From the UHGV virus genome UHGV-1357609: DNA of 42,425 nucleotides; one strand, written 5' to 3'. Source of the stretch: a virus. Shown here piece by piece: positions 5,577-42,425 of the stretch (positions are counted from its first letter, which is position 1; every line of letters starts with the position of its first letter). Under the pieces are notes generated by a model that did no database searches, was not told where the DNA came from, and saw nothing but the letters and a program-made list of their open reading frames with translations. Position numbers and translations under genes: made by a program.

Positions 5577-6991
5577 TGGTATCTGTTAGAACATATAAGC
5601 AATCAATTTCATATTTAAAAAGTTTAGAGGGCAAAGCGTTAAACCCTGACGGTGCTTATGGTTTTCAATGTTTCGACGTAGCTAACCAATATTGGCTTTA
5701 TTTATTCGGTCATACTTTAAAAGGTGTAGGTGCTGCAGATATTCCGACATGGAACAATTTTACAGGAGAAGCTACTGTTTATGAGAATACACTATCATTT
5801 TTAGCTAAGCCTGGAGATGTTGTAATATTCAATAGAAATTATGGTGGGGGTTATGGTCACGTAGGTATCGTTATTTCTGCTACTTCTAACTCTATAACTA
5901 TACTGGAGCAAAATTGGGTTGGCGGTGCGTATTGGACACCTCCTGAAGTTACTACAAGACGTACACATGGCTACGACTTCCCTATGTGGTTTATTAGACC
6001 GTTCTACGCTAAAGAAACGACTAAAAACAAAGTTAAAAGCAAAGCTAAACCAGTTAAGAAAGCGAAAGCTAAGAAAGGTAAGAAAATTTTGCTTGTTGCA
6101 GGTCATGGTAAAGGTGCTTATTCAAATGATCCAGGCGCCGTAGCAAACGGATATAATGAACGTGACTTCAATAGAAAGGAAATTATCCCGAGAATAAAGA
6201 AACATCTTGAAAGTGTAGGTAATAAAGTTGTTTTATACGGTGGCAAATCAATGAATCAAGACTTGTATCAAGATACGTTATATGGACAACGTGTAGGTAA
6301 CTATTCAGATTATGGTTTATATTGGGTTAAAAAGAATGTTAAGCCTGATGTCATTGTAGAATTCCACTTAGATTCTGCTAGTCCTCAAGCAAGTGGTGGT
6401 CATGTCATTGTAAGTGACAGGTATCCTGCAGATGATATAGACAAAGCGTTATCTAGCGCACTAGGTAAGACAGTTGGTAAAATTAGAGGTGTAACACCTA
6501 GAAATGATTTATTAAATGCTAACGTTACAGGCCAACTCAATTTAAATTACAGATTGATTGAGTTAGGTTTTATCACTAGTAAAAAAGACATGGACTATAT
6601 CACTAAGAACATCAACAGTTTTACTAAGAGACTTGCAGAGGCTATCAATGGTAGACAAATCAATGCACCTAAGAGCAAACCATCTAGCAAAAAGACAACT
6701 TGGAACTGGGGAGGTACTTTCTACCCTAACGCACCTAAAAGTGGTATTAGAGTTAGAAGGTTGCCAGGTATCAATGGCGCTATTGTTGAAAGTGGCTCGT
6801 GGTTATACAGAAAGACAGATTGGGTTAAATTCGACCAAGTTATTAAAAAAGATGGATATTGGTGGATTCGCTTTAAATATCAAGCACCTGGTTCAAGTAA
6901 AAAAGATTTCTACTGCGCCGTTTGTAAAATTACTGACAAACAACAAAAAATAAAAAATGAGAAATATTGGGGCAAAATAGACTGGAAATGA
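5576..6991 (+). CDS. Endolysin with CHAP, Amidase_3 (MurNAc-L-Ala amidase) and SH3b cell-wall-binding domains
   Basis: CHAP motif: [11 protein letters not shown]...GHVGIV. Amidase_3 motif: [29 protein letters not shown]...FHLDSA. C-terminal SH3_5 motif: [22 protein letters not shown]...GYWWIRFKY. Confidence 0.9.
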
Positions 6992-22535: not shown

Positions 22536-22669
22536 TAGCAATCATTATATTAGTTTTACTACTATTTGGCTCTATACTTGAACAGAATGATCTAAAACAT
22601 CAGTTAGAAGTGAAAGAGTATGAAATTGAAGTGTTAAGAGATAAGTTGGAGAATGGAGGCAATAATTAG
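22523..22669 (+). CDS. Small TM plus coiled-coil protein (48 aa), not in the ORF track
   Basis: Hand-translated: MWGVIAIIILVLLLFGSILEQNDLKHQLEVKEYEIEVLRDKLENGGNN. Confidence 0.35.
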   Translation: MWGVIAIIILVLLLFGSILEQNDLKHQLEVKEYEIEVLRDKLENGGNN

Positions 22670-23070
22670 TGTATTCAAAAGCATCTATACTAAACATGAT
22701 TGATGGATATAAAATGAATTGTAATATATTAGAAGATGTAGTACCTGAATGTGATAGTAATTCTATTGCTCAATATGGGATACAAGCTACATTACCGAAA
22801 CCGCAAGGAGAAAATGGTAGTAAAGTTGAGGATGTTGTAATAAGACTAGAGAGAACAAACAAAAGATACGCGCAAATGCTAAAAGAAGTTGAATTCATCA
22901 ATCAATCACAACAAAAATTAGGACATGTTGATTTCTGTTTCTTAGAACACCTTAAAAAAGGTAGACGTAGAGATAAGATAATAGAGAAGATGCCTAACGC
23001 TAAATTGAACAGAAATAATTTCTTAGCTCGCAAAGATGAGTTGGCTGAAAAGATATACTTATTACAGTGA
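22669..23070 (+). CDS. Candidate late-gene transcriptional regulator (positional analogue of RinA/ArpU-type activators)
   Basis: Last gene before the terS leader. It has a GTG start after the RBS GGAGG. The call rests on position only. Confidence 0.3.
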   Translation: MYSKASILNMIDGYKMNCNILEDVVPECDSNSIAQYGIQATLPKPQGENGSKVEDVVIRLERTNKRYAQMLKEVEFINQSQQKLGHVDFCFLEHLKKGRRRDKIIEKMPNAKLNRNNFLARKDELAEKIYLLQ

Positions 23071-23104
23071 CGATAATGACGAAAATGACTGAAATGACAG
23101 TATT

Positions 23105-23133
23105 TTTCAATATGTATTTATTTTTTATATAAT
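23105..23133 (+). promoter_or_regulatory. Candidate late promoter
   Basis: TTTCAA, 17 bp spacer, then TATAAT at 23128-23133. Periodic AATGAC repeats lie upstream at 23068-23098. Confidence 0.35.
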
Positions 23134-23358
23134 GAATGTGTAAGAATTACCTCACAAGACATAGTGTTTATCCTTTCGCACTATGGTGGGGTATTCAATT
23201 CAAAGTGATTGGATAAGTGCTTATCGTCTTTATAGACGTTGCGCATCCGATTGCTTGACTATCCGTCACAATGGCGGGTAGTTTAATTGAATCTTACAAC
23301 ACGGCTTCCGATACGATGATATGAATACTTGACATGTAATTTTTCTCCTCCCTTAATT

Positions 23359-23394
23359 AGTTATCCGTGAGAACACACGGGTAACTAATTTTTA
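23359..23394 (+). terminator. Strong intrinsic terminator inside the terS leader
   Basis: Stem AATTAGTTATCCGTG/CACGGGTAACTAATT of about 15 bp, followed by TTTTTA. Confidence 0.7.
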
Positions 23395-23462
23395 TGTATT
23401 GATGTGACATAGAGGTGTGACATGAGTACATAAACTCAAATAAATAACAAAACATAATCATT

Positions 23463-23489
23463 AGGCACTGTTTACGCAGTGTCTTTTTT
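23463..23489 (+). terminator. Second intrinsic terminator about 50 bp upstream of the terS start
   Basis: Stem GGCACTG/CAGTGTC, followed by TTTTTTA. Confidence 0.55.
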
Positions 23490-23537
23490 ATACGTCAAAC
23501 AAAGGTGCTTAACCGTGAGAGTAGGTGGTAATATACG

Positions 23538-23972
23538 ATGACGAAACTGAATCTTAAACAACAAACATTTGTTGATGAGTACATTAAGACAGGTACTGCT
23601 TATCAATCGGCAATTAGGGCTGGTTATAGTGAGAAATACGCAAAATCAAGTAGTCATAAATTGTTGGAAAATGTGGGAATAAAAGCAGAAATAGACAAAC
23701 GAATGGAAAAACTTAAAAAAGATACAATCGCAGACCAAGATGAAATACTTCAATATCTCACCTCTGTATTACGTGGGGAGGTAACAGACCAAGAGTTGAT
23801 ACCTATTCAAGTTGGCAGAGGCGAAATGGAAGTAGAAGAACTAGAAAAAAGGTCAGATACTAACGCTAGAACTAAAGCTGCAGAATTATTAGGTAAGCGA
23901 TATATGATGTGGACAGATAAACAACAAATAGAAACGACTGCGATGGTGCATTTCGATGATGATATCAATTAA
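23538..23972 (+). CDS. terS: Terminase small subunit (Terminase_2 family)
   Basis: Motif LNLKQQTFVDEYIKTGTAYQSAIRAGYSEKYAKSSSHKLLENVGI. Confidence 0.85.
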   Translation: MTKLNLKQQTFVDEYIKTGTAYQSAIRAGYSEKYAKSSSHKLLENVGIKAEIDKRMEKLKKDTIADQDEILQYLTSVLRGEVTDQELIPIQVGRGEMEVEELEKRSDTNARTKAAELLGKRYMMWTDKQQIETTAMVHFDDDIN

Positions 23973-25221
23973 ATTATCTGAACTGTTACCTAAACACTTT
24001 CATAGCTTATGGAAAGCGACTAAAGATAGAGAGAAGTTGAACATAGTAGCTAAAGGTGGACGTGGTAGTGGTAAGTCGTCTGATATATCTATAATCATTA
24101 CACAGTTAATCATGCGTTATCCTATGAATGCAGTTGTAGTACGTAAGACAGACAACACATTAGCTACATCAGTATTTGAGCAAATCAAGTGGGCGATAGA
24201 AGAACAAAAGGTGTCACACCTGTTCAAAGTTAAAGTGTCGCCAATGGAAATTACATACGTACCTAGAGGGAATCGAATTATCTTTAGAGGGGCACAGAAC
24301 CCCGAACGATTAAAGTCGTTAAAAGATAGTCGGTTCCCTTTTTCTATCATGTGGATAGAGGAGTTAGCAGAATTTAAGACAGAGGATGAAGTCACTACAA
24401 TTACTAACTCTATGTTACGTGGTGAATTAGATGACGGATTATTTTACAAGTTTTTCTTTAGTTACAACCCTCCTAAGAGAAAACAATCGTGGGTTAACAA
24501 AAAATACGAAACCTCATTCCAACCGGATAACACATTCGTACACCATTCAACGTACTTAGATAACCCTTTTATTTCTAAACAGTTTATACAAGAGGCAGAG
24601 AGTGCGAAAGAACGTAACGAACAACGTTATCGTTGGGAATATATGGGTGAAGCGATTGGTAGTGGCGTTGTACCGTTTAATAACTTACAAATAGAAACGA
24701 TACCCCAAGAAATGATTGATGGTTTTGACAACATAAGGAATGGCCTTGACTTTGGATATGCTGACGATCCGTTAGCGTTTGTCCGTTGGCATTATGATAA
24801 AAAGAAACGGGTTATTTACGCTATCGATGAATATTACGGTGTTCAGATTAGTAATAGGCAATATGCAAACGAAATGTGGAAAAGAAAATATCAGTCAGAC
24901 GACATTTACGCTGACCATGCCGAACCTAAATCAATAGCTGAATTAAAGCGAGAACATGGCATGAAAAAAGTAAGACCGGTTAAAAAAGGGCCTGATAGCA
25001 GAGAATATGGTGAACAATGGTTATCTGATTTAGAAGCTATCATAATAGATCCAAAACGTACACCGAATATCGCAAGGGAATTTGAAAACATAGATTATCA
25101 AACTGATAAAGATGGAGATATTATTCCTAAATTAGAAGATAAAAACGACCATACAATTGACGCCACTAGATACGCCCTAGAGCGTGACATGAGGCAGAAT
25201 AAACTTAGCATACTTACGTAA
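23956..25221 (+). CDS. terL: Terminase large subunit
   Basis: Walker A motif GGRGSGKS and a C-terminal nuclease acidic motif. Confidence 0.9.
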   Translation: MMISIKLSELLPKHFHSLWKATKDREKLNIVAKGGRGSGKSSDISIIITQLIMRYPMNAVVVRKTDNTLATSVFEQIKWAIEEQKVSHLFKVKVSPMEITYVPRGNRIIFRGAQNPERLKSLKDSRFPFSIMWIEELAEFKTEDEVTTITNSMLRGELDDGLFYKFFFSYNPPKRKQSWVNKKYETSFQPDNTFVHHSTYLDNPFISKQFIQEAESAKERNEQRYRWEYMGEAIGSGVVPFNNLQIETIPQEMIDGFDNIRNGLDFGYADDPLAFVRWHYDKKKRVIYAIDEYYGVQISNRQYANEMWKRKYQSDDIYADHAEPKSIAELKREHGMKKVRPVKKGPDSREYGEQWLSDLEAIIIDPKRTPNIAREFENIDYQTDKDGDIIPKLEDKNDHTIDATRYALERDMRQNKLSILT

Positions 25222-27680: not shown

Positions 27681-27887
27681 ATGGAGTTTAACGTAAAGGT
27701 TAATATTGACGCTGATGAAGCAATTGAGAAATTAGAGCGTATCAAACAACTATATGAAGAAATTAACCGATTAAAGAACGATAGATCAGTTGTAAAGGTA
27801 GGAATAAGCAACGAAGCTAACACAGAACAAATTAAAAATCACATTAATAAAAGTAATGCTGAAAATGCAAATTTTAACTTATTCTAG
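27681..27887 (+). CDS. Hypothetical small head-module protein
   Basis: ORF followed by a terminator hairpin. Confidence 0.4.
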   Translation: MEFNVKVNIDADEAIEKLERIKQLYEEINRLKNDRSVVKVGISNEANTEQIKNHINKSNAENANFNLF

Positions 27888-27917
27888 CTAACACTAAAAT
27901 GTGTTGGCTATTTTTTA
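27885..27917 (+). terminator. Intrinsic terminator/attenuator inside the head operon
   Basis: Stem TAGCTAACAC/GTGTTGGCTA, followed by TTTTTT. Confidence 0.55.
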
Positions 27918-31778: not shown

Positions 31779-31804
31779 GAGGGCATTAAGCCCTCTATTT
31801 TTTT
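31779..31804 (+). terminator. Attenuator/terminator after the major tail gene
   Basis: Stem GAGGGC/GCCCTC, followed by TATTTTTTT. Confidence 0.6.
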
Positions 31805-41304: not shown

Positions 41305-42425
41305 TGGAATTAGAAAAAGTAGGTAAACTTGATTTAAACGAAGAACCATATTTACAACCGATATCTAATAGAGGTATCGGTTTTTATAATCTCGATAAAA
41401 ACACTGCTAAATTTCAATTTGTAGTACAAAAAGACAACAAACCTTTGTTAATCAGCGATAAGAATGTTAAAGGTTATGCTTTCTTTAAAGCTGCGAACGG
41501 AACAGAAGAAAAACGACCTAGTACATCAGGTGTATTAGACGTAGAATTCATTGATCCAATGAAAGGATTAATAGGTGTTACGGTACCTCAATGGTTTCTG
41601 AAAAACGTTGTCGATTCTGAAGTGTTGGGTGAAATTTACTTATCACTCAACGATGTAAACAACGTAGGAAAAGACGACACTGTTGTGTTAGGCACTTTTA
41701 AATTCACGGTACGCGACAGTCTTATCAATCAAATCGAAAGTGATATCAAAGTATCTTATATTCGAATGTTTGATGAATTGCGTTCGGAATTAGAAAAGAA
41801 AGTGCAACAACTTAAGCAAGATATAGGCGATACACAAACGTTGATTGAAACTATAAGACAAACAGCTGAAGATTATCTAATTAAGATAAACAAAGCTCAA
41901 GCAGACGCTATTGTTTCAATTACAGACGCATTAATGTCGTCTAACCAAAGTATTGAGTTAGAGAGAGAAGAAGCTTTAAGACAAATAGACTCTAAACGTG
42001 ACGCTATCAAGACGGATTATGATTTAGCTTACGATAATTTCAAAAATCTATACGACAGTAATTTGGAACAATTCACAAGCAATGTTAACGATGCTAATAC
42101 CACAATCGATGGAAAAGTTAGCTCTTTTAAAGAATTGTTAGATAATGACGGTTTTACAACACCAGCGTTTGTTGAACAAAAGTTTACAGATGCTAATTGG
42201 CAAAAGTACAAACTCACTAATGATGATGGAACTAATTTTTATGATGCCAACCTACAAATAGATTTTAATAACAACGAACAATTAATGTCTTTACCAATAG
42301 GTACGAGATATGTTGTTCTTACTTTGAATAATCCAAGCGGAACTAATAACAATGGTTGGTTAACAAAGTACAAAAGAAATGGAGATGCTGTTTTAATACA
42401 ATACCAACCTTACAATTCAACTGTA
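41304..42425 (+). CDS. N-terminal part of a tail fibre / receptor-binding protein. It is open to the window end and probably continues at position 1
   Basis: The ATG overlaps the upstream stop (TAATG). There is no stop through 42425. A coiled-coil segment (QLKQDIGDTQTLIETIRQ) fits a fibre. Confidence 0.6.
   Translation, partial: MELEKVGKLDLNEEPYLQPISNRGIGFYNLDKNTAKFQFVVQKDNKPLLISDKNVKGYAFFKAANGTEEKRPSTSGVLDVEFIDPMKGLIGVTVPQWFLKNVVDSEVLGEIYLSLNDVNNVGKDDTVVLGTFKFTVRDSLINQIESDIKVSYIRMFDELRSELEKKVQQLKQDIGDTQTLIETIRQTAEDYLIKINKAQADAIVSITDALMSSNQSIELEREEALRQIDSKRDAIKTDYDLAYDNFKNLYDSNLEQFTSNVNDANTTIDGKVSSFKELLDNDGFTTPAFVEQKFTDANWQKYKLTNDDGTNFYDANLQIDFNNNEQLMSLPIGTRYVVLTLNNPSGTNNNGWLTKYKRNGDAVLIQYQPYNSTV

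Follow-up and report, generated by a model that had tools for sequence, protein, structure and literature searches.

The window, i.e. the whole 42,425-nucleotide stretch of DNA analysed here (UHGV virus genome UHGV-1357609), belongs to a temperate Staphylococcus epidermidis siphophage, and a sequence search showed that the region under study is 92-97% identical to that of phages vB_SepS_BE01, IME1348_01, 456, PH15 and CNPH82. We analysed the 467 nucleotides (23071-23537) lying between a late regulator gene and terS, the first late gene. This interval had been singled out in an original prediction as the longest one free of open reading frames (ORFs). A raw count gives one longer gap, at 41305-42028, but it is actually an ORF running off the window end, which leaves the 467-nt gap as the longest genuine stretch without an ORF. 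It contains operator-like repeats, a promoter, a folded RNA domain and two terminators, which we read as the region that controls the phage late operon together with the operon's 5' leader. The features are as follows:

22669-23070, plus strand: late transcriptional regulator gene of the LtrC family (133 aa, 84% identical to phage 55 ORF034)
23066-23098, plus strand: four copies of (A/G)TGAC repeated directly every 9 bp, putative LtrC operator (Tandem Repeats Finder and pattern count)
23104-23133, plus strand: sigmaA-type late promoter, TTTTCA-18-TATAAT (10/12 matches)
23139-23298, plus strand: conserved five-helix RNA domain of 160 nt (fold, covariance model and covariation)
23139-23145 with 23292-23298, plus strand: closing helix P1, present in the minimum-free-energy fold and conserved
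23148-23193, plus strand: hairpin P2
23194-23200 with 23285-23291, plus strand: inner helix P3, enclosing P4 and P5
23203-23256, plus strand: long hairpin P4
23257-23283, plus strand: hairpin P5
23299-23354, plus strand: single-stranded linker (about 55 nt, unpaired in the fold) with a conserved ACGAUGAU stretch and the CU-rich motif UUUUUCUCCUCCCUU (23340-23354)
23355-23398, plus strand: intrinsic terminator T1 (15-bp stem at 23355-23390, 6-nt loop, U-tract, TTTAT)
23399-23462, plus strand: conserved spacer between T1 and T2, with two TGTGACAT boxes (23403-23410 and 23416-23423) and ACTCAAATAAATAACAAAACATAATCATTAG
23463-23490, plus strand: intrinsic terminator T2 (9-bp stem at 23463-23484, UUAC loop, U6)
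23520-23972, plus strand: terS ribosome-binding site (AGGTGG, as predicted) and terS itself (23538-23972; Pfam Terminase_2, E = 1.3e-30)

Along its whole length, the upstream gene product shares 84% identity with phage 55 ORF034, characterised as LtrC by Quiles-Puchalt et al. in 2013 (PMC3753634), and it matches phrog_1058. Its prediction as a late regulator was thus borne out, but not its assignment to RinA: the product has no match to the RinA NCBIfam and is of the LtrC type. It gave no Pfam, NCBIfam or PDB match either (PDB sequence and profile searches were both empty), and its AlphaFold2 model is poor, with a mean predicted local distance difference test score of 53.7. LtrC homologues occur in at least 12 Staphylococcus species. 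Downstream of terS, Pfam identified TerL (Terminase_3) and then an SPP1-type portal. The regulator gene, the terS, terL and portal genes that follow it and the direct repeats are those found in Ltr-dependent late promoter regions, whose definition includes three to five such repeats at or immediately past the end of ltr.

The repeats consist of AGTGAC at 23066 and AATGAC at 23075, 23084 and 23093 and overlap the ltrC stop codon (23068-23070), in agreement with the AATGAC periodicity first noticed there. Tandem Repeats Finder reported 3.5 copies of period 9, for a pattern whose chance expectation is 0. Homologous repeats follow ltrC in phages 55 and B166 and in prophages of many species, and in phage 55 they are bound by LtrC (PMC3753634). 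More generally, LtrC and RinA bind repeats located just 3' of their own genes, and exchanging the repeats exchanges the specificity (PMC3152322, PMC3753634). By analogy, the TGAC repeats of the window phage are probably the operator of its LtrC. The sigmaA-like promoter lies within a few bases of where it had been predicted. Its -10 box is followed by 5 nt and then by TGTAAGAATTA, an arrangement that is constant in every relative carrying the domain at the 5' position, whatever the type of regulator; transcription would start at about 23138-23141. In Phi13, late transcription was mapped to start 42 nt past the Ltr repeats, and mutation of the -10 box of the repeat-adjacent promoter abolishes all late expression (PMC13123087), and promoter activity is Ltr-dependent in both phage 55 and Phi13 (PMC3753634, PMC13123087). 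A promoter scan found no sigmaA-like promoter between T2 and terS.

A conserved RNA domain followed by terminators

The segment 23138-23400 folds on the plus strand with a minimum free energy of -86.8 kcal/mol (z = -6.7), a value that none of 200 shuffled sequences equalled, while the minus strand folds poorly (z = -2.06). The GC content reaches 0.40-0.42 at 23150-23300 compared to 0.22-0.33 in the flanks, as had been noticed, and the long-range closing helix proposed originally corresponds to the conserved P1. The imperfect internal repeats are also real: by eye, 23179-23205 and 23267-23293 are identical at 18 of 27 positions, and they correspond to the 3' strands of P2 and P5 plus both strands of P3. 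Rfam 15 gave no match at its gathering threshold in the window, the best ones in 22600-24000 being chance-level matches to a snoRNA and to STnc560, and no tRNAs were found in the window. A covariance model built on the domain detected a single copy in the window, scoring 167.9 bits.

The covariation analysis suggested by the original prediction gave a clear result. RNAalifold run on a MAFFT alignment of 36 distinct sequences yielded 36 base pairs, with 99.8% of the cells paired, 5 pairs changed by compensatory substitutions and 17 changed on one side through G-U; controls in which the partner was slid along the alignment were paired in 28-52% of cells. When divergent members were added, in an alignment fitted to the covariance model, 98.9% of the cells remained paired and 19 of the 36 pairs were compensatory (slid controls, 29-47%). 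G-U pairs account for 18% of the cells in the 36-sequence alignment, so only 82% would pair on the minus strand. The alignments thus point to selection on the plus-strand RNA. The domain is also conserved at the sequence level across 8 species, and P4 carries the invariant unpaired nucleotides GUGAUUG, AAG and GUU.

Both terminators proposed originally have a hairpin followed by a U-tract, with 2 found for 0.4 expected; the hairpin energies are -13 to -17 kcal/mol for T1 and about -10 kcal/mol for T2. Each of the 79 distinct leaders with a 5'-position domain has T1 after it. T2 occurs throughout the S. epidermidis type and in many domain-less leaders, but neither in the S. aureus (B166) type nor in 3 of 4 SU1-type leaders. 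Between the two terminators, the predicted GTGACAT direct repeats were located at 23404-23410 and 23417-23423. The spacer that holds them, also seen at L407 880-945 and L408 860-935, contains the direct-repeat boxes and ACTCAAATAAA..CAAAACATAATCATTAG; it is 84-95% identical in otherwise unrelated S. pseudintermedius and S. aureus phages (EW, SAP3) and occurs in prophages of several species as well. The boxes of the window correspond to two GATATGAG boxes of other species. Two further terminator-like hairpins with U-tracts occupy intergenic positions within the late operon, at 27885-27910 and 31779-31795 on the plus strand, one before the scaffold gene and the other after the major tail protein gene (positions of these genes offset from the E72 annotation), so that read-through would be needed there also.

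Upstream of T1, the CU-rich motif is the most widely conserved feature of the leader: whether or not they have the domain, almost all staphylococcal Ltr leaders carry it before T1. The motif (CCCUCCUUUCAAAA in SAP3) resembles boxA, an element of the rRNA leaders of Gram-positive bacteria and of lambda nut sites (GCUCUUUAA / UUCUUUGAAAA), a likeness that may hint at NusB/S10 loading. Some S. epidermidis-type leaders (L110 at 6807-6935, L014 and L305) have about 65 nt inserted after the domain and before T1, in place of the motif; the minus strand of this insertion resembles a coding fragment (KKYRRVAVYGDIKDDTDENGKEYKN). A gene on the minus strand of the leader itself (23296-23337) was considered and rejected. 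Three leader types do have a strong Shine-Dalgarno-like sequence and an ATG opening an ORF of 12-13 codons on that strand, which folds poorly, but neither peptide nor frame is conserved, even among S. epidermidis variants. The Shine-Dalgarno-like sequence is the complement of the CU motif, and because of this lack of conservation the mini-ORF is probably a by-product of the motif.

Distribution and modularity of the leader

Relatives of the leader were collected by sequence and pattern searches, and further species were reached through the loci of LtrC homologues, which were scanned with the covariance model; a 16-base pattern scan of genome contigs returned only chance matches among the matches listed. 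The domain is present in phages or prophages of at least 8 Staphylococcus species. The sequence and pattern searches found it in three types, all starting with TGTAAGAATTA: the S. epidermidis type (at least 92% identical), the SU1 type (about 72%) and a shorter S. aureus type, the latter represented by 85 or more records of S. aureus phages (phiETA, phiNM4, phiMR11, 80, 55, 29, 71, 88, B166 and others). The covariance model added prophages of S. hominis, S. hyicus, S. chromogenes, S. agnetis and S. ratti. One record, OR842880 (L002, 2046-5184), is labelled as a Xanthomonas campestris phage, 'Xanthomonas phage SU1', with locus tags XccPhieta; it is a staphylococcal Rockefellervirus-type genome with RinA, RinB, the leader RNA, HNH and terminase, and its host label looks doubtful.

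In its fullest form, the leader plan comprises repeats over the stop codon of the regulator gene, a sigmaA-like promoter, a 5' hairpin, a linker with the CU motif, T1, two GATATGAG boxes with the spacer, often T2, and the first late gene. Leaders with the same plan and only a small 5' hairpin in place of the domain were found in 80alpha, SAP3, SpT152 and Phi13 and in LtrC prophages of S. haemolyticus, S. gallinarum, the S. intermedius group, S. rostri and S. coagulans; 80alpha and Phi13 have a shorter plan with one terminator, which in Phi13 is again a hairpin with a U-tract. The plan occurs in prophages of 10 species. Since relatives keep it with only the small hairpin, the domain is an optional module. 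Every leader, long or short, opens with a hairpin at +1 or +2, and in the window phage, in the S. aureus type and in S. hominis the 160-nt domain is inserted inside this hairpin. The insertion is instead between the two GATATGAG boxes, i.e. between T1 and T2, in S. agnetis, S. hyicus, S. chromogenes and S. ratti (P4-P5 domain at L410 2100-2223, L419 2101-2234, L423 2103-2240 and L421 2045-2150). The existence of this second site in four species indicates that the domain behaves as a movable module, and at both sites it is on the transcribed strand, upstream of a terminator.

The leader is also independent of the genes that flank it. Leaders that are at least 93% identical adjoin unrelated regulators, LtrC in the window and RinA-family proteins in BE20 and E72, and precede unrelated TerS proteins of 144 aa (window) and 126 aa (E72) that have no real similarity, while the SU1-type leader precedes an HNH gene and a cos-type TerS. 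This placement between unrelated regulators and TerS proteins rules out a pac site specific to TerS as well as an RNA partner specific to Ltr. In some prophages (L416 2232-2847, L410 2323-2862 and L415 2094-2915), the leader is followed first by genes other than those for terminase, which stand under late-promoter control; their products are a HicA/HicB toxin-antitoxin pair, a YfbU-like protein or a 273-aa protein of unknown kind. The GenBank records of PH15, 27, 48, 456 and 459 start at the equivalent of window position 23232, and those of CNPH82, CNPx, phiIPLA5, phiIPLA7 and E72 at 23295. Because these starts fall inside the domain, the leader is split across record ends and is easily missed in annotation.

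A natural deletion affects the leader of E72m5, a derivative of E72 growing on a strain that carries SeCISE48 (PMC12597102). E72m5 (L403/L405, PV036961, about 101-102) has a clean 70-bp deletion flanked by TTGA microhomology and equivalent to window positions 23329-23398; the CU motif and the whole of T1 are removed, the domain and T2 are kept, and the phage is viable. We found no mention of this deletion in the literature searched. It fits a role of T1 in limiting late expression. However, E72m5 cannot serve as genetic proof: it differs from E72 at 366 aligned positions, carries mosaic patches in terL, tail genes and a hydrolase gene and has lost another stretch of about 374 bp near dut, so its phenotype cannot be assigned to the loss of T1.

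Late transcription and the possible roles of the leader

We propose that the region is a terminator-guarded leader in which the RNA domain modulates read-through into the late operon. LtrC would bind the four TGAC repeats over its own stop codon and activate the adjacent sigmaA promoter. Transcription would begin at about 23139, and the first 160 nt would fold into a domain whose closing helix includes the 5' end; the unpaired CU-rich stretch, T1, the spacer, T2 and terS would follow. T1 and T2 would shut the late genes against read-through from the early operon, and late expression would then need polymerases coming from the LtrC promoter. Most transcripts would probably end at T1, giving an RNA of about 255 nt, and some would extend further. 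The optional domain would act in cis on the elongating polymerase, or via a host factor, and raise read-through in the manner of put/EAR or nut elements; this role is suggested by the fact that, whichever position it occupies, it always precedes a terminator and is on the transcribed strand. We give this proposal as a whole a probability of about 0.45. Its parts differ in strength. The analysis shows the anatomy, the RNA structure, its conservation and its modularity, from which the start, the termination and any influence on read-through are inferred; the anatomy and the transcription of the leader, taken alone, are likely to be right, whereas the read-through role of the folded domain is possible but doubtful.

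When the Ltr protein is absent, transcription from an upstream plasmid promoter does not reach terS, which the authors attributed to a terminator separating ltr from 'the terS promoter' (PMC3152322, PMC3753634). In 2011, Ferrer et al. reported that RinA depends on sequences located over 155 bp upstream of the mapped 5' end, with an intervening terminator, a result for which they gave no explanation (PMC3152322). That late transcripts of this phage group have to cross a leader terminator is a sound inference from the start mapped in Phi13 and from the hairpin and U-tract of the Phi13 leader. The simplest reading is that the repeat-adjacent, Ltr-activated promoter is the late promoter, whose transcripts cross one or two leader terminators.

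Several observations weigh against our proposal. In phi11, 80alpha and phage 55, late 5' ends were mapped by 5' rapid amplification of cDNA ends (RACE) to 23-28 nt before terS, downstream of the terminators, and the 80alpha RNA had been pretreated to remove 5'-monophosphate ends (PMC3152322, PMC3753634). These ends mark either a second promoter or a processing site, and may be processing products. Phage 55 carries this RNA family and nevertheless shows no read-through from an upstream promoter without LtrC, though the domain is transcribed (PMC3753634); for those transcripts, the RNA alone is therefore not an autonomous antiterminator of the put type. Since domain-less phages express their late genes normally, the domain is not required for read-through, and since they possess terminators without the 160-nt domain, it cannot be a general read-through device. 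The viability of E72m5 without T1 and the CU motif shows that T1 is dispensable. Finally, no conserved antiterminator helix was found between P5 and T1: pairing of the P5 3' arm with the T1 5' arm is not conserved, it does not beat shuffled sequences in the SU1, S. hominis and B166 types, and it does so only in the S. epidermidis type (8 of 500), unlike what a riboswitch or attenuator would show. Of the cis-acting antitermination leader put forward originally, the transcribed, structured and covarying leader with its terminators is retained; phage 55, the domain-less relatives and the lack of an alternative helix speak against the autonomous put-like RNA.

The main alternative, already named in the original prediction, is rather unlikely. 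The leader would produce a late, LtrC-dependent small RNA of about 255 nt ending at T1, whose CU-rich stretch, resembling an anti-Shine-Dalgarno sequence, would pair with host or phage ribosome-binding sites; the folded domain would add stability or protein binding, and the late operon would have its own start immediately upstream of terS. The promoter, the structured RNA, the unpaired C-rich motif and the strong terminator match this anatomy. Such an arrangement is reportedly, from the 2009 work of Geissmann, usual for S. aureus small RNAs with a UCCC motif; the staphylococcal C-rich class (UCCC/CCUCC) pairs in trans with Shine-Dalgarno regions. The wide conservation of the CU motif, the T1 that invariably follows 5'-position domains and the RACE ends downstream of the terminators (PMC3152322, PMC3753634) all speak for it. 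However, in the four species where the domain is downstream of T1, it lies outside any RNA ending there; no sigmaA-like promoter precedes terS after T2; the repeat-adjacent promoter of Phi13 drives all late genes (PMC13123087); the L110, L014 and L305 variants have replaced the CU motif; and E72m5 is viable without the motif and T1.

A bolder version of our own proposal is in our view unlikely. In that version, the P4-P5 domain would be a new cis element that loads on RNA polymerase, either directly or with the help of a Nus-type factor of the host, so that neither the leader terminators nor those inside the late operon stop it, and all staphylococcal Ltr late operons would be entered by read-through. 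If true, such a general mode of entry would resolve the puzzle raised in 2011 by RinA sites more than 155 bp upstream with a terminator between.

Less likely again is a passive role as a 5' stabiliser and insulator, in which the terminators only attenuate and insulate, read-through is mere leakage from a very strong activated promoter and the domain is an enlarged hairpin that protects against RNase J1 or RNase Y with no effect on polymerase. The hairpin that opens all leaders at +1 or +2, the insertion of the window domain inside it, the functional domain-less phages and the lack of an alternative helix are consistent with such a role. But the invariant unpaired AAG, GUU and GUGAUUG and the sequence conservation across 8 species exceed the needs of a stability hairpin, and the internal copies between T1 and T2 cannot cap a 5' end.

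A pac site recognised by TerS at the DNA level is very improbable. The record starts of the PH15 type (23232) and of the CNPH82 type (23295) had drawn attention to it, but leaders at least 93% identical stand before unrelated TerS proteins and the SU1 type before HNH and a cos-type TerS, covariation including G-U pairs reflects selection on the plus-strand RNA, and packaging is headful with no defined ends (PMC8125051). A cos site, suggested by the same record starts, was rejected because headful packaging makes these starts conventions (PMC8125051). A decayed mobile element or pseudogene without a function of its own is largely refuted: the sequence is optional, occurs at two positions and is flanked by direct repeats (the GATATGAG boxes) at the second, but nearly all its pairs are kept by compensatory changes, it has no conserved reading frame, the minus-strand mini-ORFs differing in frame, and it keeps a constant strand and context, with no other copies in the window or in plasmids. 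Short leaders in related phages, combined with extra sequence of degenerate origin, had been named as what would speak against a leader RNA; the short leaders do exist (80alpha, SAP3 and others), but the compensatory pairs show that the extra sequence is not degenerate.

Comparison with known systems

Late-gene control decides particle production, transduction and the mobilisation of pathogenicity islands in staphylococci. The current model, in which Ltr binds the repeats and activates 'the terS promoter', does not account for the 150-400 bp that separate the upstream binding sites from the mapped mRNA end, nor for the terminator between them. The conserved leader plan makes the question of late entry directly testable. 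The leader may also bear on escape from islands that inhibit late transcription, as E72m5, which grows on an island strain, has lost T1. For its part, the domain constitutes an undescribed and well-supported RNA family with clear boundaries, two contexts and natural comparisons with and without it. No description of this leader RNA or of Ltr-linked antitermination was found in the literature searched, and none in Rfam.

The closest systems are the Ltr/RinA late promoters (RinA of phi11/80alpha, LtrC of phage 55, Ltr of Phi13 and Alt of TP901-1). As in the window, they have repeats at or after the regulator gene's 3' end, a sigmaA-like -10 box about 40 nt downstream, then terS and the late operon. 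Their published model of an 'ltr terminator plus terS promoter' includes no transcribed structured leader, RNA domain or terminator read-through. The lambda pR'-6S RNA-tR' region with Q, a type of module defined also by a sigma-dependent pause near the promoter, is similar in having a DNA-bound regulator at the late promoter, a short terminated leader RNA and a terminator before a long late operon that holds further terminators. It differs in that the lambda promoter is constitutive and Q modifies elongation only, whereas here the promoter needs the regulator, according to the Phi13 reporter data; moreover, LtrC has no detectable similarity to Q and matches nothing in Pfam or PDB.

HK022 put and the Bacillus EAR element are likewise structured RNAs located after a promoter and before terminators, acting in cis on a long operon with no cognate phage protein. 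However, put consists of two hairpins of about 70 nt, while the window domain has five helices over about 160 nt, is optional and has no sequence or Rfam relation to it, so that it does not classify as a put element; the phage 55 data also argue against protein-independent read-through (PMC3753634). The RsaE-type small RNAs of S. aureus with a UCCC motif and the small RNAs derived from attenuators share a 5' hairpin, an unpaired C-rich stretch and a terminator with the window RNA, which differs in being phage-encoded, late and part of an operon leader, and is not related to them in Rfam. The CBASS-activating bacteriophage RNA (cabRNA; Banh 2023) is likewise a structured RNA that staphylococcal phages encode in their terminase region, but it was rejected as a candidate because it sits inside the terS-terL coding sequence (PMC10686824), the window RNA being upstream of terS and unrelated in sequence. 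A structured operon leader with terminators is known as a kind; the novelty lies in the RNA family, in the two contexts where it is inserted and in the general plan by which Ltr phages place a terminator within the leader.

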